NCBI GenBank assembly: GCA_050010755.1
Contig: JBEKKK010000001.1
Span: forward strand, 1,373,237 to 1,437,236
Direction of reading: 5' to 3'
Length of the DNA stretch: 64,000 bases
Source of the DNA: Candidatus Bathyarchaeia archaeon
GTDB taxonomy: Archaea > Thermoproteota > Bathyarchaeia > Bathyarchaeales > Bathycorpusculaceae
A program made the translations under genes and the position numbers. The notes under the pieces are model-generated. The model searched no databases and was not told where the DNA came from. It saw only the letters and a program-made list of their open reading frames with translations. Shown in pieces: positions 54,650 to 64,000 of the stretch (the stretch's first letter is position 1; each line of letters begins with the position of its first letter).

Positions 54650-55588
54650 TCAATCGGGAAGTTCTAGTTTCAGTTGTTTCTTGAGGGTTTTGTAACGGTT
54701 TCTCACGGTGACTTCGGTGACGCCTGCTGCTTCAGCTATGTCTTTTTGTGTTTTCTTCTCGTTGTTCTGCAAGCATGCGATGTACAATGCTGCGGCTGCG
54801 AGTCCCATTGGGTCTTTCCCGGCGGCTGCTCTCTTGGCTCTGGCTTCTCTCAGGATTTGTATGGCGAGTCCTTGGGTCTTGCCTGAGATTCCTGTTCTTT
54901 CAGCGATTTTTGAAACGTACGTGAGCGGATCCGCGATGGGCATGTGCACTTCAAGTTCGCGTAGCAGTAGTCTGTAGCAGCGGGCAACGTCTTTCTTGTC
55001 GACTAGGCTTGCTTCTGCGATTTCGCGTAGGGTTCTGGCTGTTCCGCTTCCACGGCAGGCTGCGTAAAGCGCCGCGGCTGCGATGGCGGCGATGGATCTG
55101 CCTCGGACTAAGCCTTTGTCTAGGGCTTTGCGGTATGTTACAGCGGCTTTTTCTTTGATTGGGGGTGGGATGTAGACTTTGTCTGACAGCCGGTCGAGTT
55201 CAGCCATTGCTTGGGCTAGGTTTCTGTCGATTGAGGAGTGAACTCTTGAGCGTATCTGCCATTTTCTCAGGCGCCACATCTGTAATCGTGTTGAGAGTGG
55301 GAGTTTTCTTCCGAAAGCATCACGGTCAACCTGGCTTATGGCGGTTGACAAGCCTTTATCGTGAACGGAATAAGACGTTGGTACTCCAACGCGGCTTCTT
55401 GACGCTTTCTCTTCCTGGGTGAAAGCGCGCCATTCTGGGCCTTTATCCATCATCTGCTCGTACAAAACGAGTCCACAGTCGCCGCAAACGGTTTCGCCGG
55501 TGTCATAATCATGGACAAGGTTTGAACTGCCGCATTCTGGGCACTTGTCGACTAGACGTTGGCGAACGCCGGCTTCTTTTTTGCTCAA
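54650..55588 (-). CDS. tfb: transcription initiation factor IIB
   Basis: CPECGS Zn ribbon, GPEWRAF, cyclin repeats, VTEVTVRNRYK. Confidence 0.98.
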   Translation of the reverse strand: MSKKEAGVRQRLVDKCPECGSSNLVHDYDTGETVCGDCGLVLYEQMMDKGPEWRAFTQEEKASRSRVGVPTSYSVHDKGLSTAISQVDRDAFGRKLPLSTRLQMWRLRKWQIRSRVHSSIDRNLAQAMAELDRLSDKVYIPPPIKEKAAVTYRKALDKGLVRGRSIAAIAAAALYAACRGSGTARTLREIAEASLVDKKDVARCYRLLLRELEVHMPIADPLTYVSKIAERTGISGKTQGLAIQILREARAKRAAAGKDPMGLAAAALYIACLQNNEKKTQKDIAEAAGVTEVTVRNRYKTLKKQLKLELPD

Positions 55589-55833: not shown

Positions 55834-56949
55834 TTGATTCAATTGATGATGCTCCCTGAGAAGCTGCGAAAAGTGTTGGAGAGAACTGTCAAAGAGCTGG
55901 CCGCCAAGGAGAATGTTTATGGGGTGGGGCTTTTCGGGAGTTGGAGCCGAGGGGACGCCGAACCTTCAAGCGATGTTGACTTGCTCATACTTGACAGTAA
56001 CGACTTTGCGTACGAGTTCGTTGAGAGGGTAGATAGGGGCGGTTTTCTAATCGATCTAGACCATGTTACGAGACGGTGGATTCGAGGCCAGATTCCTCCG
56101 GAGATAGATCAGAAACTCTACGAATCTCAGATACTCTACGACAGAGACTGGACCCTGACGAACACCAAACTCTTGATGGCGAAGTCTTACGGGTCACCCG
56201 AGAGGGTTGACATTCGAACAGATGCTCACGTCGTGGAATCTGACATATACTTGAGCAGGGCGACCTCGGCACTTTCGAGGCATGACTTCAGAAGCTCACA
56301 TCTCTTTGCCACAGTCGCCTTTGAGAACGCTCTGAAGGTTCTGATTGAGATAGCCCTGCAGCCGCTTTCGAACAGTCGATTCATGGAGAAAGCTGAAGGC
56401 GCAGCGGCGAAACTGGAAATGCAAAACCTTTTTGATCAGTACAAAGAGATGACAGGCTTCGGCACGGTTGACCAGACACAGGCCAAAGACAGATTGAGTC
56501 TCTTCAAAAACGTTTGGGACGACGTCTATGCCGTTGCAAACAAGAATCCTCAAACACTCGAATCTGCCCATTTCAAGGTCAGGAAGCGGCTCAGCTACTA
56601 TTTGAACCCAGTTTTCATTCAAGGCGTCGTGAAACGCGCAAGCGCCATGATCGAGGCCGAAAAAAACGTCGAAGTTGCGCACTACCTCGGGGATATAGTT
56701 CTAGACCTTGTCGAAAACTATGCATGGTTAAAATCTCTCATTCTAAAGGTAAAGATAAACTACACGACACTGATGGGGACGTTGGAAGGTTTGGAAGGAA
56801 GAGAGTCCGCAAACTACAGAAACATAACAGCAATTCTGGATCTGAGCGACATCGATAAAACCGTTGCAGCAAATGAAAACAAAGCGACTCGAGATGCAAT
56901 GCTCAAGATACGACGAGACAGGAAACTCTTAATCAAAAGCGCGCGCTAA
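55834..56949 (+). CDS. minimal nucleotidyltransferase-domain protein with helical (HEPN-like) C-terminus
   Basis: LFGSWSRGD..SDVDLL. Confidence 0.8.
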   Translation: MIQLMMLPEKLRKVLERTVKELAAKENVYGVGLFGSWSRGDAEPSSDVDLLILDSNDFAYEFVERVDRGGFLIDLDHVTRRWIRGQIPPEIDQKLYESQILYDRDWTLTNTKLLMAKSYGSPERVDIRTDAHVVESDIYLSRATSALSRHDFRSSHLFATVAFENALKVLIEIALQPLSNSRFMEKAEGAAAKLEMQNLFDQYKEMTGFGTVDQTQAKDRLSLFKNVWDDVYAVANKNPQTLESAHFKVRKRLSYYLNPVFIQGVVKRASAMIEAEKNVEVAHYLGDIVLDLVENYAWLKSLILKVKINYTTLMGTLEGLEGRESANYRNITAILDLSDIDKTVAANENKATRDAMLKIRRDRKLLIKSAR

Positions 56950-57077
56950 CATGTCGAACCCTCCAAAGGGTGGGTTCACTTTTTCACGTTTACTGTCAAT
57001 CCTTATTGTAGATTCATAAACGGCTTAACCACCAACGCCCAAACTCTGAATCCAGCAGAAAACTTAGAGGTATAGCA

Positions 57078-57224
57078 ATGTGTAATGATATGAGACGTTT
57101 CGAAAGAATTGCGGAAGAAAAGAAGCGCAACAAGAAAGAAAAGGAAGTTGAATTCGTCGTCAAAGAAATTGAAGAAATCACCTTGACTTCCAAAACAGGA
57201 ATCAAAACGCGTCCCCAAACATAG
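57078..57224 (+). CDS. 48-aa charged hypothetical protein
   Basis: gaggt SD; MCNDMRRFERIAEEKKRNKKEKEVEFVVKEIEEITLTSKTGIKTRPQT*. Confidence 0.5.
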   Translation: MCNDMRRFERIAEEKKRNKKEKEVEFVVKEIEEITLTSKTGIKTRPQT

Positions 57225-57571
57225 CCAACCAGCTTTCAGTCCGCATGCCTGTTGCCAAATCCTGAAGTTCTGCCCAGTCTGTCATCTTTTTTCACCAAAC
57301 CATGCGCACGCGATCTGAGTTTGCAGCCAGAGCATTATTGGCTGTTGCTGTAGGTCAGCTATTATTGGAGTTGGACAGCGTCAAACGCATTATTTCTGTT
57401 CCTTCTGTAGGTAAACGTGTCCTTCTTCTGTTTTGAAGAACCGTGAATCTCGTTTAGGAAGCTTAAGCCTAATATAAAACAACTTATTAGACCTAGCTCA
57501 GGAAAAAAAGTGCGCAAATGCCGACGGTAATGTCGCATGCGCACAGTGCTTTGTAGAAGTGGCCCGGAAAA

Positions 57572-57671
57572 AGCCCGGTGGAGGGAAGGTCACCTTTCCG
57601 CCGACTGTAGTGGACAAGCATAGCGGGCTTTGGACCCGCCGACGAGAGTTCGAATCTCTCCCGGGCTACCA
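57572..57671 (+). tRNA. tRNA-Gln(UUG) with a 24-nt intron (57582-57605) between positions 10 and 11; CCA encoded
   Basis: spliced form AGCCCGG TG GTGT AGTGGACAA GCAT A GCGGG CTTTGGA CCCGC CGAC GAGAG TTCGAAT CTCTC CCGGGCT A CCA folds into a full cloverleaf. Confidence 0.92.
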
Positions 57672-57699
57672 TTCTCTAGAGTTAAATTCATACTTTCTA

Positions 57700-57745
57700 A
57701 AATGGCGAACAGGGGACTCGCCATTTCCCTCCTTTCTTTTTCTGT
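57700..57745 (+). terminator. 9-bp hairpin followed by a pyrimidine/T tract after the tRNA
   Basis: aaatggcga-N9-tcgccattt then ccctcctttctttttct. Confidence 0.45.
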
Positions 57746-57775
57746 GCTCTGGAAAGTAAAAATTTTGGCGGTCGG

Positions 57776-58627
57776 ATGTCAAAAGTCAAATTTGACTTCA
57801 GTACTGTTCGCACTCGTGTCATTCCGATTTTGAAGAGGGTTGAGGTTGAGGATTATCCTACTAAGATTGGACGGATATATGGTTGGAGTCGTCAACATGT
57901 TTGCTATTATCTTGGGAAGCTGGAGAAATGCGGTCTTGTCAAGCGGAAAGTTCGCAGCCGTGCCGTTTTCTATGAGTTGACGGGTCGAGGTAAAACTTTT
58001 CTCGCATCATGTGAGGACGTCGTCTTCGGTAGTGGTGTGTACCGGCTGGACCGGTGCCAGGTGCGGTTTGTGATTGTGAGTGAGGGTTGTTTGCCCGTGG
58101 ATTTTAGGCGTGTGGAGATGGTGAATTGGACGGCTTTGTTGGGTTTGGAGCAGGGCGTTATGGTTAGGCATACGAGTCGCAGTTGGATTGTGCACGTGGA
58201 GACAGTGTACGGAAAGCATCCTGGCGAATTGTTTGTGTTAGCAAAGAATTTGGCAGATCGTGTGGCCAAGAGTTTGATGATGAAGTACGGTTGCAGGTTG
58301 AGTGAGGGTGAGGTTTGCCGGGGTTATGAGCTGAAGGTTGATGATCCTGTGGCTAGGCTGCTTGCGAGGTACTTCTGTGTTAGCACGCCAGAGAGGAAGA
58401 TAGATCATAGTCCAGGCGTCGGGGAAGGTGAGCTGGAGCATTTCGGCAGGGACGCTGCGGTTGAGTATTTGCTTATGCCGGAGCGTGTGAAGAAGCTCGA
58501 GGGCCAAGTGCAAGCGTTGCATGTGGATCTGGAAGAGCTAACTGGGACTCTCCGAAAACTGTTGAATATTGAAGGCGCTGGGGGGCCGAGTCCTGATCAG
58601 GGCAATCTGGATAGGTATGTGAGTTAG
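57776..58627 (+). CDS. N-terminal wHTH plus unknown domain; probable element backbone protein
   Basis: YPTKIGRIYGWSRQHVCYYLGKLEKCGLV..YELTGRG; G/T-rich coding strand; C-terminal coiled coil. Confidence 0.75.
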   Translation: MSKVKFDFSTVRTRVIPILKRVEVEDYPTKIGRIYGWSRQHVCYYLGKLEKCGLVKRKVRSRAVFYELTGRGKTFLASCEDVVFGSGVYRLDRCQVRFVIVSEGCLPVDFRRVEMVNWTALLGLEQGVMVRHTSRSWIVHVETVYGKHPGELFVLAKNLADRVAKSLMMKYGCRLSEGEVCRGYELKVDDPVARLLARYFCVSTPERKIDHSPGVGEGELEHFGRDAAVEYLLMPERVKKLEGQVQALHVDLEELTGTLRKLLNIEGAGGPSPDQGNLDRYVS

Positions 58628-58846
58628 GGGTGTTTCTGGAAGTGGTATTGCGTTCAAAGTCTGCTTTGGAGCTGGCGTTGAGGCATGGTAAAAGTCCATG
58701 CTTTTTGGGTTGTGCCTTTCTTGTCTCTATTGATGTAGGTTGGCCATGCTCAGGTTTCTCTTTCCTCAACATTGTCACTATACTATGGTGAGCTTTTCGG
58801 TATGGAAATGAACGCTGAGCCTGTTCCAACACCGTGAAAAAAGCGT

Positions 58847-59272
58847 TTGCAAGAGGTGAAAATTGGCCGGGTCAAGTACACTCTACAGTTGGTTAAAGGG
58901 ATTCAGCGCGACATCGAAGAGATCAAATTGACGCAGCGCACTATTCTTGCGGGTCTCAAAGGGCTCTTTCATTTCGAAAAGCCCATGATTCAGAAGATCG
59001 CCTGCGTCGACGAGGTTGACACTGAGTTGTTGGAACTGCTCTTTAAAGCAGGCAACGCCGGGCTGTTGCCGAAGGATCTTGCAGTTCGCTTGAACCGGTT
59101 TGGGGTTGAGCGGCATCAAGTCAGCCGCAGAATTCTCCATATGAACAAGCGTTTGAAGAGGGAACTAGGTGAGCAATTGGCTGAGAAACGAGGTTGGCAT
59201 TGGGCCTTAACAAGTTTTGCGTTTGATGTTTGGGGAGAAAGTGAAGAAACGAAGCAGACGAAAACAGAGTAA
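58847..59272 (+). CDS. coiled-coil plus wHTH-like hypothetical protein
   Basis: DEVDTELLELL..GLLPKDLA..RHQVSRRI..KRGWHWALT. Confidence 0.7.
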   Translation: MQEVKIGRVKYTLQLVKGIQRDIEEIKLTQRTILAGLKGLFHFEKPMIQKIACVDEVDTELLELLFKAGNAGLLPKDLAVRLNRFGVERHQVSRRILHMNKRLKRELGEQLAEKRGWHWALTSFAFDVWGESEETKQTKTE

Positions 59273-59359
59273 GGCCGCGTGTCAAAGCGCGCGCGAAGCA
59301 ATATCTTGACCAGCGCGCGGGTCTAAGCTTTATATATCAAACATCGAAAAACACAAGCT

Positions 59360-59887
59360 ATGTCAGACACGTCAGTTTTTGCTCTTCTCGGCGGATTGGC
59401 TGCCTTTGTCGGCATTTCGCTATTAATATCTTTGATAATCATCAAAGCAATTTCGAATGCAGCAGAACGATCGCAGCTTCCTAAGGGCAGTATTCGAGAC
59501 GTACAGGAGGGCATATTCATAGTATGGTTGGCGTTGACGGTTGTATGGATACTTCAGAGTCTAGGCTTTACTTCACTTTTATCTTCCCTCACTCTCTCGG
59601 GAATAATAGGCTTGGGCATAACACTGGCGTTACAATCGACGTTCTCAAACCTTTTGGCGGGAATCTGGCTTTTGCGCGAGAACGTGCTACGTTTAGGCGA
59701 TAACATAAAAATCCTAGGAGTGGAGGGAACCGTCATCAAACTGAGTTTTCGAACCACCTGGCTCAAGACCAGCGAAGGCAACATCGTCATAATGAGCAAT
59801 TCGACACTCTACAATGGTCCATTCACAAACCTCACTGCAACAAAGCGTCTATCTGAAAAATTCGAAAAGAAAAACGAATCTCTTTAA
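59360..59887 (+). CDS. short MscS-family mechanosensitive channel
   Basis: GLGITLALQSTFSNLLAG..LGDNIKI.GVEGTV..FRTT. Confidence 0.88.
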   Translation: MSDTSVFALLGGLAAFVGISLLISLIIIKAISNAAERSQLPKGSIRDVQEGIFIVWLALTVVWILQSLGFTSLLSSLTLSGIIGLGITLALQSTFSNLLAGIWLLRENVLRLGDNIKILGVEGTVIKLSFRTTWLKTSEGNIVIMSNSTLYNGPFTNLTATKRLSEKFEKKNESL

Positions 59888-59933
59888 ACTAGCGCGCGCT
59901 AAGCACGCATTACATCAAGAAGGTGTGCGCTGT

Positions 59934-60491
59934 TTACTTTTCTGTGCTTTTCGATGGGGGCATATGGAAACTGACAAATAGCATATCATGAGCGATTTCT
60001 GTCTTAGGCACAAGTCCAAGGGTAGTTTTGACGAATTGGCCTATGGCATTCTTCAAGTATATCGAGTATTTCCTTCCAAGATCATGATGGAAAGTAATTA
60101 TGCACTGCGCTCCGTCAACTTTGATTTCGCTAGTACCGAGTCCGCTGTACTTGCAATAGTTTGAGATGGTCTTCAGAAGTGTCTCCGCTTTCAACTCCTT
60201 GAACCAGAAGAGCGTTACTGCCTTGAGGGTTGGGCTTGCAGTGTTGGTGGCGATTTGTTCAATCTTGCACTCGTCAACCTCTTCGAGGATAGATTTGAAG
60301 GTCTGCCTTGCAAAGGAGATAAATCCAAATCTCTCAGTGTGTCTGTCCCACTCTACATATTTCGTCATGATTCTGTTGATTAGTCCATTGACAGTCAAGT
60401 CGCTTTTCTCAGCGTCGTCTCGCAATATGGAATCCAATTCCTGATTGAGACGAACTGTTCTCAAAACGGTTTTCTTCCTCTTGACACTCAT
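59934..60491 (-). CDS. ribbon-helix-helix regulator with C-terminal ligand-binding-like domain
   Basis: RTVRLNQELDSILRDDAEKSDLTVNGLINRIMTKY; divergent from the cargo operon. Confidence 0.7.
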   Translation of the reverse strand: MSVKRKKTVLRTVRLNQELDSILRDDAEKSDLTVNGLINRIMTKYVEWDRHTERFGFISFARQTFKSILEEVDECKIEQIATNTASPTLKAVTLFWFKELKAETLLKTISNYCKYSGLGTSEIKVDGAQCIITFHHDLGRKYSIYLKNAIGQFVKTTLGLVPKTEIAHDMLFVSFHMPPSKSTEK

Positions 60492-60602
60492 GATCATGCA
60501 CTCTTTGTTACACAGAGTAGTACAAACGCACTTTCTGTAAACTTCCTAATTAAATATCCTTTCGCACCTACGTATGGTAGGTTAAAAGAACAATCAAGAA
60601 AG

Positions 60603-61403
60603 GTGAACTTGATGGAAAGAATGTTGGTGGTAGTTTTTGAAAATGAGTTAAAAGCGTACGACGGATTTAAAGCTCTGACTGAACTCGATTCCGAAGGAAG
60701 TATTTCTATCCACGCCCAAGCTGTCATGAAGAAGAATGACGATGGAACAGTTATCGTAAAGCATAAGGGAGAGGATTTTCCGATTCGCACAGTTGGCGGA
60801 ACAGCAATCGGTGCTCTGATCGGACTTCTAGGGGGACCCATCGGCCTTGGCATCGGTGCGGTTGCTGGAACTCTTACTGGGAACATCTTGGACATGAACC
60901 GAGCTGGAGTCAACGCAGGGTTCCTTGATGACGTATCCAAGAAACTCACACCCGGCAAATGGGCGATAGTTTCAGACATCAACGAAGAGTGGATAACTCC
61001 TGTTGATACCCGAATGGCAGTGCTGGGCGGCACTGTATTTCGCATCACACGCCAAGATGTCGAGAGTGAACAAGACGCAAGAAGCGTGGCAGCTCTGAAA
61101 GCGGACATTGCTAAGTTGAAGACAGAGCAAGCTAAGTCGCGGGCAGAACAAAAGGCCAAAATCCAGTTAAAAATTGATGACTTGAATAAAAAGTTGCATG
61201 TCAAACGAGAACAGGCGAAACAGAGGTTCCAGCAAGAACAAGAAGAAGCCAAAGCTAAGATGGAGGCATTGGAAAAGAAAGCAGCGAAGGCGAAGGGTGA
61301 AGCCAAAGCGAAAATTGAAGCACGGATCGCCGACATAAAAGAGAAATCGAAAGAGTCAAGAGAAAGATATCAGGTGCTATGGGAGGACGATGTGTTTCTT
61401 TGA
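60603..61403 (+). CDS. DUF1269 glycine-zipper protein with long charged coiled-coil tail
   Basis: LVVVFENE..GTAIGALIGLLGGPIG..FLDDVSKKLTPGK. Confidence 0.82.
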   Translation: MNLMERMLVVVFENELKAYDGFKALTELDSEGSISIHAQAVMKKNDDGTVIVKHKGEDFPIRTVGGTAIGALIGLLGGPIGLGIGAVAGTLTGNILDMNRAGVNAGFLDDVSKKLTPGKWAIVSDINEEWITPVDTRMAVLGGTVFRITRQDVESEQDARSVAALKADIAKLKTEQAKSRAEQKAKIQLKIDDLNKKLHVKREQAKQRFQQEQEEAKAKMEALEKKAAKAKGEAKAKIEARIADIKEKSKESRERYQVLWEDDVFL

Positions 61404-61984
61404 ACCTATTGGAGCAGCCGGGTTGGCTCCGGGGTTTAGAAGTAGTAACTGGCTTGTTGGCCATGGTGTTCGGAGTTCTAGTGTTCGTCTTTCCAGGCTG
61501 GGGCATCGGGACTCTTATTGTCATGCTATCAATCGGTCTTTTCTTTAGTGGGATAAGGTCGATCTCTCTCATAGGTTACAGGAGCCTCTCCAGCAGCCTG
61601 CGGGCAATGAGTGCGATATCAGGAATCATATCCTTGATTCTTGCATTGTTGGTCGCGTTATTTCCGGGGTATGGCGAGCTGACACTGTTGATACTCGTGT
61701 CATTTGGACTGATTGTGTATGGATTCGGAAGGATATTCATCGCCTCCACGCTCAAGACAACAGCGGGTTGGATTAGAGGCATGATGGTTGCCGTGGGTGT
61801 GCTCGACGTCATTCTATCGGTGGTCGTGCTCGTTCTTCCTAGTCTCGCGTTGCTGACCTTCGCAGTTGTCCTCTCGGTAGTGCTGCTCGTAAGTGGAGCT
61901 GAGATGATCGTCTCCGGAGCGATTGGTCGCACATGGCTTGGAGATCTTGTGAAAGCTGCAAAGGACGAAATGGATGGAAAATAA
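61400..61984 (+). CDS. HdeD/DUF308 family membrane protein
   Basis: six TM helices in repeated G..P units; TTGA overlap with the upstream gene. Confidence 0.78.
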   Translation: MNLLEQPGWLRGLEVVTGLLAMVFGVLVFVFPGWGIGTLIVMLSIGLFFSGIRSISLIGYRSLSSSLRAMSAISGIISLILALLVALFPGYGELTLLILVSFGLIVYGFGRIFIASTLKTTAGWIRGMMVAVGVLDVILSVVVLVLPSLALLTFAVVLSVVLLVSGAEMIVSGAIGRTWLGDLVKAAKDEMDGK

Positions 61985-62063
61985 GTGTTGTCACTTGTCC
62001 CTGTTGGTTTGGAAGCAGTCCTGCGTACACGTGCACAAACAATGAATAGGAGGTGAAAAAAGT

Positions 62064-62555
62064 TTGACTGATATGGTCGTACTAGCGTTTGACAGCGAAA
62101 GTGGGGCAGATCAGGGAAGAAAAATACTGGTGGAACTGAACAATGAATACGTGCTTAACCTTGTTGATGCCGTTGAGGTTGTTCGGCACGCCGATGGAAA
62201 AGTCAAGGTGAAGAACATTCGCAACCTAACAGGCATCGGAGCAATGGGTGGAAGTTTCTGGGGACTACTCTTCGGTATTCTGTTTTTCGCGCCAGCTCTC
62301 GGAGTTGCCGTCGGAGCAGTATCAGGCGCCATCGCAGGCCACTTTGCACAGTTCGGTGTTAGCAAAGGTTTCCTAAAGCAGGTCGAAGACTCAGTGAATT
62401 CGGGAACCTCAGCTCTCGCAATCATGGCCTCAAACGTTGCCGTCGACAAGACCGTTCAAGCGCTGAGCCCACTTCATCCGAAAGTCATTCGCAGTTCTCT
62501 TTCCACCGAGCAAGAAGCAAAACTCAACGAAGCCTTCGGCACACTCACGAAGTAA
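62064..62555 (+). CDS. DUF1269 family protein
   Basis: DAVEV..DGKVKV..GGSFWGLLFGILFFAP..GTSAL..SSLSTEQE; SD ggaggtg. Confidence 0.88.
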   Translation: MTDMVVLAFDSESGADQGRKILVELNNEYVLNLVDAVEVVRHADGKVKVKNIRNLTGIGAMGGSFWGLLFGILFFAPALGVAVGAVSGAIAGHFAQFGVSKGFLKQVEDSVNSGTSALAIMASNVAVDKTVQALSPLHPKVIRSSLSTEQEAKLNEAFGTLTK

Positions 62556-62650
62556 CCCAGCCAGGAAATACTCATGCCCCAAGAAAGCAAGGCTCCACAG
62601 TGCCACTTTTTTTTGGCCAAACAAACAAAGTGTCTAAATAGGAATGATCC

Positions 62651-63340
62651 ATGTTGCCCAACTCACGCTTTTCAAACCAAACTAGAATAATCAATACGTA
62701 TGTTCAGAAAGTATATTTCTGGATGTTCATAGGCTTAATAATAACAAGCATTACTGCTTACTTTGTTTCGCAGGATCCAAATCTCTACAACGTGATACTG
62801 GGCAATGATATTGTTTTTTATGGGTTATTAATCGCACAGTTTTTAGCCATAGTCACTGTGTCTGCTTTTATAAGACGAATACCTGATAACCTTGCAGAAA
62901 TCACATTCGTGTTATACTGCTTCCTCACAGGGCTGACCCTTTCAGCAATCTTTTTGGAGTTTACAATAAGCTCTATAGCTTATGTAGTTTTGATTACGGC
63001 CGCTATGTTCGGTTTCATGAGTCTTTACGGATACGTAACAAAAACAGATCTTACATCGCTAGGCAACATTGCAACGATGGCCTTATTCGGGATTATTCTG
63101 GCATTAATCGTTAATCTATTCCTTATGAATTCGGCTCTCGACACGATACTCAGTATCATTGGTGTATTGGTTTTTTCAGCCTTCACGGCCCATGACACTC
63201 AGAAGATCAAAAGTACTCTGATGGATAAGGATGAAGATCTTATAAAGAAAGAAATACTGGGTGCTCTTAACCTCTATCTGGATTTCGTCAACCTTTTCTT
63301 GGACCTACTCGACTTATTTGGAAAAAGGAGGTCAGACTAA
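62651..63340 (+). CDS. Bax inhibitor-1/YccA family membrane protein
   Basis: KVYFWM.GL, YGYVTKTDL, DTQKIK, GALNLYLDFVNLF. Confidence 0.93.
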   Translation: MLPNSRFSNQTRIINTYVQKVYFWMFIGLIITSITAYFVSQDPNLYNVILGNDIVFYGLLIAQFLAIVTVSAFIRRIPDNLAEITFVLYCFLTGLTLSAIFLEFTISSIAYVVLITAAMFGFMSLYGYVTKTDLTSLGNIATMALFGIILALIVNLFLMNSALDTILSIIGVLVFSAFTAHDTQKIKSTLMDKDEDLIKKEILGALNLYLDFVNLFLDLLDLFGKRRSD

Positions 63341-63398
63341 TCCGTTATCGGGCCTCATTTCCAAGTTTGATTAAAGTGTCAGTAGGAGGTGAAAACTA

Positions 63399-63557
63399 GT
63401 GTCAAGTGAAATGGAGAAAATCAAGAAAAGATTCGAAGAATTTGAAGAAGGTATGAAGAAACATATGTCTGAGGCGAGACAGGCGGACAAGAAAAGGATT
63501 GATGAGCTAGATGCTCGTGTGAAAGCTCTGGAAGAGAAACTGAAGAAGAAGACGTAG
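63399..63557 (+). CDS. 52-aa charged coiled-coil protein
   Basis: SD ggaggtg, GTG start; MSSEMEKIKKRFEEFEEGMKK..IDELDARVKALEEKLKKKT*. Confidence 0.7.
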   Translation: MSSEMEKIKKRFEEFEEGMKKHMSEARQADKKRIDELDARVKALEEKLKKKT

Positions 63558-63884
63558 CTTCAGCACAGAAACGTAGTTGTTTGTTTCAACACTGCGCATA
63601 AGGATAATCTATCTTCCTTATTTTCTTTGTTTGGATTCTAGCGCGGTAACAGATGCACTTCTTCCAGTCTTTTGTATTTTTTCACAGGCGCGCGCGCTAG
63701 AAGTCCGAGAGGAACAACATGCAGCAGCGAAACAATAAAAAGTATAAAATTAACGCTAGAGAGTGGTATCTCCCGGGCTACCAACAAACTCTAGCCAGGA
63801 CGATATTCAGGTTCTCGTCTTTGCGAAATCATTTGAACCAAAAGACTGAAATTGGTTATCGGTCAAACTGTTATTGGATTAAAC

Positions 63885-64000
63885 TTGTCGTTCTCGTACA
63901 CGTTTAAGCGGCTGGTTCGTTCGTGGCCACTGTTTATAGCCCTGTTGCTGGGCATCATTTTGGCATCCACTTTTTTCGCGGGCATCAACGTCGGCGCGGA
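63885..64000 (+). CDS. N-terminus of a probable FtsX-like ABC permease (runs off the window)
   Basis: MSFSYTFKRLVRSWPLFIALLLGIILASTFFAGINVGA. Confidence 0.55.
   Translation, partial: MSFSYTFKRLVRSWPLFIALLLGIILASTFFAGINVGA

Follow-up and report, generated by a model that had tools for sequence, protein, structure and literature searches.

An integrase-less island at a tRNA-Gln gene of a Bathyarchaeia archaeon is probably a deletion derivative of a tRNA-integrating provirus

The stretch of DNA analysed here (the window; 64,000 nucleotides [nt] from a Candidatus Bathyarchaeia archaeon) contains near its right end a 6.1-kb interval, 57657-63783, that begins in the 3' end of a tRNA-Gln gene and closes with an exact copy of that 3' end. 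An earlier reading made from the letters alone (the sequence-only reading) had offered two explanations: a satellite or minimal integrative element mobilised in trans, or a decayed island. We found that the interval is a genuine insertion at tRNA-Gln and that it contains an integrase gene remnant, which speaks for a decayed island; the trans-mobilised class is less well supported. The island is probably a deletion derivative (a grounded provirus or island) of a tRNA-integrating Bathyarchaeia element, most likely a temperate head-tailed virus. Its left end carries a viral module, predicted to be DNA-binding, that encodes proteins of 283 and 141 amino acids (aa); at its right end, the 12 terminal codons of a tyrosine integrase gene are followed by an attachment-site (att) arm and core.

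Borders of the island

The following features define the ends of the island and its flanks.

57572-57671, plus strand: tRNA-Gln(UUG), intron-containing, with encoded CCA; attB/attL (Rfam; ARAGORN after in-silico intron removal; gene intact in four congeners)
57657-57671, plus strand: attL core, the left copy of the 15-nt direct repeat (exact match search)
57667-57698, plus strand: left 32-nt arm, inverted relative to the right arm (27/32; repeat alignment; same arm type after tRNA-Gln in provirus G061)
57704-57767, plus strand: putative hairpin (57704-57722), polypyrimidine run and A/T-rich promoter-like box upstream of the 283-aa gene (sequence reading)
63688-63698, no strand: alternating GC tract at the deletion breakpoint (integrase homology begins right after it)
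63700-63738, plus strand: tyrosine integrase remnant, last 12 codons (EVREEQHAAAKQ) and stop (nt identity to integrase 3' ends in 10 loci; tblastn)
63737-63768, plus strand: right 32-nt arm, an inverted repeat of the left arm (repeat alignment)
63769-63783, plus strand: attR core, the right copy of the 15-nt repeat (exact match search)
63784-63820, plus strand: displaced tRNA-Gln 3' trailer (same trailer type directly after tRNA-Gln in other Bathyarchaeia)
63852-64000, plus strand: 5' part of an FtsX-like ABC permease gene in the host flank, truncated by the contig end (similarity; metagenome contig extension)

The exact 15-mer occurs only twice in the window, at 57657-57671 and 63769-63783, and is the final 15 nt of tRNA-Gln(UUG), CCA included. 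Shuffled versions of the window contained a mean of 0.05 matches at up to 2 mismatches, and 2 matches were reached in 1 of 100 shuffles; the recurrence that the sequence-only reading had pointed out is thus unlikely to be due to chance. ARAGORN called zero tRNAs on the unmodified window, because an intron interrupts the gene. Rfam scored 57604-57660 as tRNA at 31.9 bits (gathering score 29), and in-silico removal of 18-33 nt near 57579-57612 led ARAGORN to call tRNA-Gln(ttg) at 57572-57671 in 183 of 288 trials. Since trial splicing restores the call, the gene is a tRNA-Gln(UUG) with a non-canonical intron at roughly 57580-57605.

Just inside the two cores lie 32-nt arms that are mutually inverted, with 27 of 32 positions in agreement by hand count (chance probability 2.8e-12). 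An excised circle would therefore read arm, 10-nt spacer, inverted arm. Such a symmetric layout is typical of tyrosine-recombinase core sites, and the present arms are long for such a site. The arrangement of hairpin, pyrimidine run and A/T-rich box recurs at the corresponding end of related elements. Three metagenome loci (L199, L204 and L228) have an arm on both sides of the core; they are candidates for the attP of free or circular elements, or for head-to-tail or head-to-head tandem integrations.

The host genome (G000; 2.19 Mb, 8 contigs, 93% complete) is interrupted 217 nt past the right repeat, where the window, which is the final 64 kb of contig C1, stops at the contig end. Contigs C1 and C8 both terminate in identical permease sequence of at least 99 nt, and this repetition of the permease 5' end accounts for the break in the assembly. 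A metagenome contig identical to the window across attR (L232) extends the flank by 1.7 kb into an FtsX-like permease, whose start lies at about 63852 rather than at 63885, where it had been placed before.

The interval is an insertion

Two observations together indicate that the interval was inserted at tRNA-Gln: its cargo is whole in no other genome examined, and the native tRNA trailer has been displaced beyond the second repeat copy. Among 61 genomes, the cargo DNA (about 4.4-4.5 kb) is whole only in G000, and the other three matches are fragments of 27-594 nt. A gene block that is fixed and syntenic in relatives would have spoken against an element; this cargo is whole in 0 of 60 related genomes. 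For the trailer, our comparison set consisted of 56 other Bathyarchaeia loci that share the tRNA-Gln 3' half. Judged by eye, a stretch of about 35 nt comes straight after the CCA in about 6 of these 56 loci (L075, L076, L092, L094, L096 and L107). The window carries the same trailer type after the second repeat copy (63784-63820), and many metagenomic attR junctions (among L182-L241) display it as well. Because the genes past the trailer vary among genomes, the trailer belongs to the tRNA locus and not to syntenic chromosome. The assignment of attL and attR at tRNA-Gln, already made in the sequence-only reading, is borne out by the repeat, the displaced trailer and the integrase-type right end described below. 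The conserved trailer of tRNA-Gln(UUG) is vaguely T-arm-like; it may derive from an old att site, or act in processing or as a terminator.

tRNA-Gln is intact in all four congeners, and the sequence downstream of it is alike in G002 and G004 and different in G001, G003 and G000. Within the genus we found no strict empty site, that is, tRNA-Gln followed by the FtsX permease. In G004, tRNA-Gln lies on contig C11 and the FtsX flank, together with a degenerate 29-nt tRNA remnant, on contig C1, so that no empty site is demonstrable there. In the 56 other genomes, no homologue of the 283-aa protein, the 141-aa protein or the cargo occurred within 2 kb of tRNA-Gln at E<=1e-3, and a Pfam scan of 107 open reading frames (ORFs) near tRNA-Gln in those genomes returned zero integrases.

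The right end is the end of an integrase gene

Metagenome contigs were scanned for the arm-core junction, which yielded 60 loci, 17 of them of the window's right-end type; their integrases were identified by tblastn. We found that 63699-63783 aligns with 10 metagenome loci at 85-89% nt identity over 81-86 nt, a stretch that comprises the integrase 3' end, the arm and the core. The homology starts sharply at 63699-63704 and runs through the core, with none upstream of 63699. In the intact genes the aligned stretch encodes a C-terminus ending in ...KEIREEQHAATKQ and a stop codon; the window counterpart is EVREEQHAAAKQ and a stop codon. Intact relatives encode tyrosine integrases of about 470-500 aa, and their genes end a few tens of bases from the core. 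Because the window aligns to the integrase 3' end and the homology then stops abruptly, we conclude that an integrase gene was once present and was then deleted.

The sequence-only reading had seen no integrase motifs in the interval. This holds insofar as PF00589 has no match there, but it overlooked the 3' remnant at 63700-63738. The degenerate integrase that it had named as the mark of an ordinary decayed island is thus present in miniature, as 12 codons just inside attR.

Among the 17 right ends of the same type, 15 have an integrase directly upstream, which is full length in 8, runs off the contig in 4 and is 5'-truncated in 3. Two of the truncated genes (L198 and L213) begin at residue 266, and the third (L241) retains residues 395-451. 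The remaining two loci (L182 and L232) are identical to the window and have the BI-1 gene and the 52-aa ORF in place of the integrase. Two loci of another arm type (L221 and L233) display further 5' truncation of the integrase. Integrase decay from the 5' side is recurrent.

We also considered a split integrase of the type found in Sulfolobus spindle-shaped viruses (SSV) and rejected it, in agreement with the earlier finding of no such fragments. The ORFs across the cores are only 62-67 aa long and have no family match, the reverse-strand reading at attL is arm sequence only, and no N-terminal integrase half is present at the opposite (left) end.

The 283/141 module belongs to larger elements and viruses

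The island contains the following genes.

57776-58627, plus strand: 283-aa protein with N-terminal winged helix-turn-helix (wHTH), TBP-like alpha/beta domain and C-terminal coiled coil, as predicted; att-proximal module gene 1 (Pfam, structure matches, predicted fold)
58847-59272, plus strand: 141-aa protein, module gene 2 (follows the 283 homologue in 50/52 viral loci; no family match)
59360-59887, plus strand: short MscS-like channel protein, cargo (MS_channel_2nd, 1.1e-15)
59934-60497, minus strand: 187-aa ribbon-helix-helix (RHH, Arc-like) regulator, cargo (Arc-like repressor PHROGs)
60603-61403, plus strand: DUF1269 membrane protein with coiled-coil tail, cargo (Pfam)
61379-61984, plus strand: DUF308/HdeD-like membrane protein, cargo (DUF308, 8.5e-12)
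62064-62555, plus strand: DUF1269 protein, cargo (Pfam)
62651-63340, plus strand: Bax-inhibitor-1 (BI-1)/YccA family membrane protein, cargo (Bax1-I, 1.4e-49)
63399-63557, plus strand: 52-aa coiled-coil ORF, cargo (ORF list)

Pfam and PHROG matches agree with the gene content read from the sequence, namely MscS, RHH, two DUF1269 proteins (Pfam E-values 2.8e-09 and 4.7e-32), DUF308, BI-1/YccA and a coiled-coil protein. Both leading genes had been taken as wHTH-type. For the 283-aa protein, domain and structure matches support this assignment; the 141-aa protein has no family match in Pfam and PHROG scans and may be a wHTH protein on a reading of its sequence. By Pfam, the interval contains no terminase, portal or HK97-type capsid gene and no polymerase or transposase family. 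Packaging or capsid-redirection genes had no Pfam or PHROG match either, including among the four otherwise unassigned proteins.

Homologues of the 283-aa protein are numerous: one search returned 597 proteins of the family, another 1136 representative clusters at E<=0.001, and 10 of 61 related genomes contain homologues, at up to three places per genome. At 15 such loci in relatives, the 141 gene lies alongside in 11, and none has the window's cargo beside it except for one 26% MscS match. Of 52 IMG/VR loci with a 283 homologue, 50 have a 141 homologue following it and 31 a portal or HK97-type capsid homologue within 10 kb (structural genes recognised by Pfam). At locus L153, an integrase of the family lies directly upstream of the 283 homologue. 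The five IMG/VR records with the closest 283 proteins (87-90% aa identity) all contain a large terminase; three of them, 33.8-38.7 kb long and 89-100% complete by CheckV, also contain PF00589 integrases. A search of IMG/VR for the attR-type junction pattern gave 0 matches.

Two relatives are particularly informative. The IMG/VR provirus G061 presents, in order, a transcription factor B (TFB) gene (91% to the window's), tRNA-Gln, the same left arm, a 283 homologue (68%) and a 141 homologue, and then ParB-like, terminase, capsid-like and very long tail-type genes across more than 26 kb. A second att was not found within its contig. As a full-size relative, G061 shares both integration site and orientation with the window's element. 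The one-contig genome G052 contains a capsid-less element of 21 kb, with tRNA-Gly(CCC), a similar left arm, a 283 homologue, an AbiE pair and other cargo; on its right side a 499-aa integrase is followed by an attR that matches at 15 of 16 positions. In G026 (contig C91, locus L022), the 283-side end stands beside the flank, so that the same element type is present at tRNA-Gln in opposite orientation.

These comparisons show that the 283/141 pair is the att-proximal module of integrase-bearing elements of about 21-38 kb and of tailed proviruses, rather than the backbone of a minimal element. Of the two-gene backbone and exchangeable cargo that had been proposed, the conserved module and its variable downstream content therefore stand, and the minimal-element backbone does not. 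In viral loci, between 0.3 and 8.2 kb separate the 141 gene from the first structural gene, so the window's cargo occupies a recognised variable slot. The circular form of related elements would read integrase, attP, 283, 141. Between the window and G004, dN/dS is 0.06 for the 283 gene and 0.10 for the 141 gene; the genes are intact and under purifying selection.

The 283-aa protein may join a wHTH to a TBP-like domain

The wHTH of the 283-aa protein was assigned from weak HTH_27 and ArsR-type matches together with MarR/ArsR structure matches. The full-length model was mediocre (predicted local distance difference test [pLDDT] 68.8) and matched only MarR/ArsR-type wHTH proteins. Residues 85-283, modelled with a 78-sequence alignment, reached a pLDDT of 92.2. 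The best solved-structure matches of this domain were all TBP and weak (Foldseek E 4e-3, template-modelling score [TM] 0.35-0.40), as were the VIA-align superpositions on TBP (Z 6.9, 6.8 and 6.3; root-mean-square deviation 3.6 over 125-134 residues). The top-ranking viral model (BFVD; E 5e-6) was that of an uncharacterised protein from an uncultured archaeal virus; giant-virus proteins came next, putative TBPs among them. The protein had no match to the Pfam TBP family (PF00352), hhalign against the host TBPs was negative (probability 0.5), and the ESM Atlas gave no usable match.

Taken together, these matches weakly suggest that the 283-aa protein joins a wHTH to a confidently modelled domain of TBP-like fold, and the protein may be a DNA-binding regulator or a protein that binds the origin or att region. 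A rolling-circle replication initiator (Rep_trans) was considered and rejected: RepDE matched at Z 4.8 only, and a domain with zero conserved tyrosines across 78 sequences is unlikely to be such an initiator. That two remnants have kept the 283-aa gene suggests a use to the host, such as immunity.

The genus has multiple TBP genes: counted from repeat matches, there are 2 in G000, roughly 6 in G002 and 8 in G004. Several lie a few kb from tyrosine integrases, and one G000 copy (C1:1345615-1346130, about 27 kb upstream of the window start) is 3 kb from a 432-aa integrase. Mobile elements of the genus may carry paralogues of basal transcription factors.

A second integrase-less element and the question of mobility

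G004 contains a 5.2-kb element between 24-nt repeats of the 3' end of an intron-containing tRNA-Leu(UAA). It encodes a 283 homologue (96% aa identity), a 141 homologue (84% in a codon alignment), a pyrroloquinoline quinone (PQQ) beta-propeller protein, a serpin and a small wHTH protein; the element and its contig have no PF00589 match. DNA similarity to the window is limited to 57754-59238, at 89%. The element is oriented relative to its tRNA in the opposite way to the window's, and dS of the 283 gene is 0.40. We read the G004 case as a probable independent decay of related elements, or an exchange of the module, rather than as one spreading mini-element.

G000 has three PF00589 matches, and the one nearest to the large integrase family is the 432-aa protein, 81 kb upstream of the element. 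It is 24-26% identical to that family and lacks its characteristic tail; no close cognate integrase was found in G000. One further remnant of an integrase tail occurs elsewhere in this genome. The integrase genes at G000:C2:59492-60445 and on C1 near 1116884-1117183 adjoin ARAGORN-called tRNA-Leu(gag) and tRNA-Gly(acc), so further integrated elements are likely.

Mobility was assessed in the assembled contigs of four public runs, a check that is uninformative on rare excision. In these contigs the element was full-length or partial, with no joint, circle or empty-site contig, and the loose ends seen after the tRNA belong to other tRNA-Gln contexts. Run X9, a soil metagenome from a different study, has contigs that match 58801-63559, from the 141 gene to the 52-aa ORF, with about 92-98% identity; for the 283 gene and the right end it has no contig of 90% identity or more. 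Trans-mobilisation of the element is possible, given the intact att core and the 32-nt inverted arms, and is at present unsupported.

Origin of the island

We propose the following course of events. A tyrosine integrase of about 470-500 aa would have recombined an attP, consisting of a 32-nt arm, a 10-nt spacer and the inverted arm, with the 3' end of tRNA-Gln(UUG). In this step the 15-nt core would have become duplicated and the tRNA end restored, with the native trailer displaced to the far side. A later internal deletion presumably took the integrase and all else between the variable slot after the 141 gene and 63699, leaving the element unable to move by itself. The remnant was probably kept for two reasons: its two intact regulators may provide immunity against related viruses, and the cargo, which includes an RHH regulator of its own, plausibly contributes to tolerance of membrane or envelope stress.

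Several points weigh against this origin. None of the full-size relatives recovered combines this right end with this cargo, and the deletion is consequently delimited on a single side. The island may also descend from an integrated element lacking capsid genes, such as the one in G052, instead of from a virus. Both att sites and the arms are undamaged, which a long-dead island need not keep. The 89%-identical module in the integrase-less element of G004 makes two such cases, which could hint at a recurring functional form, and the presence of the 141-to-cargo block in another study's metagenome means that the block persisted or spread. Finally, the functions given to the 283/141 pair and to the cargo are themselves predictions.

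Some of the same points would suit a non-autonomous, satellite-like mini-element excised and spread in trans by a superinfecting relative, which would supply the integrase and perhaps also the packaging machinery. We consider this unlikely. The exact 15-nt cores and the inverted arms, the latter 85-89% like those beside intact integrases, would fit it, as would the purifying selection on the module genes and the block found in run X9; the best argument is the G004 element, with the same module and different cargo. However, no close cognate integrase was found in G000, 15 of the 17 loci with the same right end keep their integrase and the other two are the window sequence itself, and no packaging or capsid-remodelling gene was recognised. 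Moreover, the two integrase-less elements share only the 1.5-kb module, sit at different tRNAs in opposite orientation and differ by a dS of 0.40; because they share so little, independent decay fits better than a spreading lineage. It is quite unlikely, likewise, that the element is alive in a broader sense, with repeated 5' truncation of integrases yielding mini-elements that keep the att cores, the arms and the wHTH/TBP-like and 141 pair and are spread by the integrase, possibly also the terminase, of a superinfecting relative. If this were true, the island would be an integrase-less hitch-hiker on archaeal viruses with membrane cargo that benefits the host.

A non-autonomous casposon-like or other transposon, with the arms as terminal inverted repeats and the 15-nt repeat as a target-site duplication made by a Cas1-type or other transposase, is very improbable. 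Casposons have terminal inverted repeats, 14-15 bp duplications and tRNA targets, which resembles the 32-nt inverted ends and the 15-nt flanking duplication at a tRNA 3' end. We rejected this explanation nonetheless, since in 15 related loci a tyrosine integrase gene ends in the right arm and the sole Cas1 match in the genome is about 770 kb away (PolB was not searched for); the interval also has no match to a polymerase or transposase family. Inverted repeats and target-site duplications of casposons are described in the available part of PMC6563490.

That the interval consists of native chromosomal genes beside a chance repeat is exceedingly improbable: its GC content (0.46) is near that of the window (0.474), but the repeat statistics, the unique cargo, the displaced trailer, the restriction of G004 similarity to the module and the integrase remnant all contradict it.

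As a grounded provirus with cargo, the island itself is ordinary and of a known kind; its value lies in the relatives to which it points. It brings to light a large family of tailed viruses and tRNA-integrating elements of the Bathyarchaeia, an abundant and hardly cultured class. The family has a distinctive integrase of about 490 aa, whose coding sequence runs into the att arm; successive stages of integrase decay can be seen, and a widespread att-proximal protein that appears to join a wHTH to a TBP-like domain is revealed. The att sites, integrases and regulators are concrete candidates for genetic tools or for work on virus-host regulation in Bathyarchaeia.

Comparison with known systems

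The island most resembles defective (cryptic, or grounded) prophages and tRNA islands, with which it shares the duplicated tRNA 3' end, the loss of most viral genes, the retention of regulators and cargo and the deleted integrase. It differs from them in its Bathyarchaeia host, in a parent virus family known from metagenomes only, and in having both att sites and the long arms intact. The proviruses and cryptic integrated elements of Thaumarchaeota, as far as the available text of PMC6563490 describes them, likewise have mostly tRNA sites, short direct repeats, tyrosine integrases and small wHTH proteins of unclear role. That text notes tandem re-use of sites and takes the integrase, by definition, as the elements' most conserved protein; here, in contrast, the integrase is deleted, and the 283/141 module is not mentioned in the available text.

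Head-tailed viruses and proviruses of Bathyarchaeia (PMC10848311, available in part; see also PMC11705971 and PMC13573593) are tailed, encode integrases and infect the same host class, and relatives of the module stand beside terminase, portal and HK97-type capsid genes. In contrast to the present case, the available part of that report describes no tRNA-Gln att site and no wHTH/TBP-like protein, and the contigs studied here could not be placed in the proposed families.

Phage satellites encode their own integrase and genes for helper interference or packaging, as do tycheposons. No integrase, helper-interference or packaging gene was recognised in the window's element. The likeness to phage-inducible chromosomal islands and Staphylococcus aureus pathogenicity islands (PICI/SaPI), to P4 and to tycheposons (bioRxiv 10.1101/2020.12.28.424599, in its available part) is that of small, cargo-bearing elements at tRNA sites tied to larger viruses. 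The 'suicidal' integrases of the SSV type (PMC7253208, in its available part) are also archaeal and tRNA-targeting, with an integrase coding sequence that overlaps att. There, however, two gene halves are recoverable; here att lies at the extreme 3' end of the gene, and 12 codons are left.

Further observations at the locus

A TFB gene, which marks the organism as an archaeon, lies at 54650-55588; the tRNA-Gln site adjoins a second TFB gene. About 530 nt (56939-57470) between a nucleotidyltransferase (NTase) gene and tRNA-Gln are missing in the otherwise collinear loci of G002 and G004, and in G003 the NTase gene and tRNA-Gln are some 23 kb apart.

The genome contains 253 copies of the 8-mer GCGCGCGC, mostly in a tA...Ta context, where about 23 would be expected. 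The window positions of the 8-mer are 56939, 59287, 59892 and 63688, and also 2738, 41029 and 45830. The first four coincide with junctions: the NTase stop, which is the indel boundary relative to G002 and G004; the end of the 141 gene, after its stop; the end of the MscS gene, after its stop; and the integrase breakpoint. GCGCGCGC is also present near both ends of the G004 mini-element.

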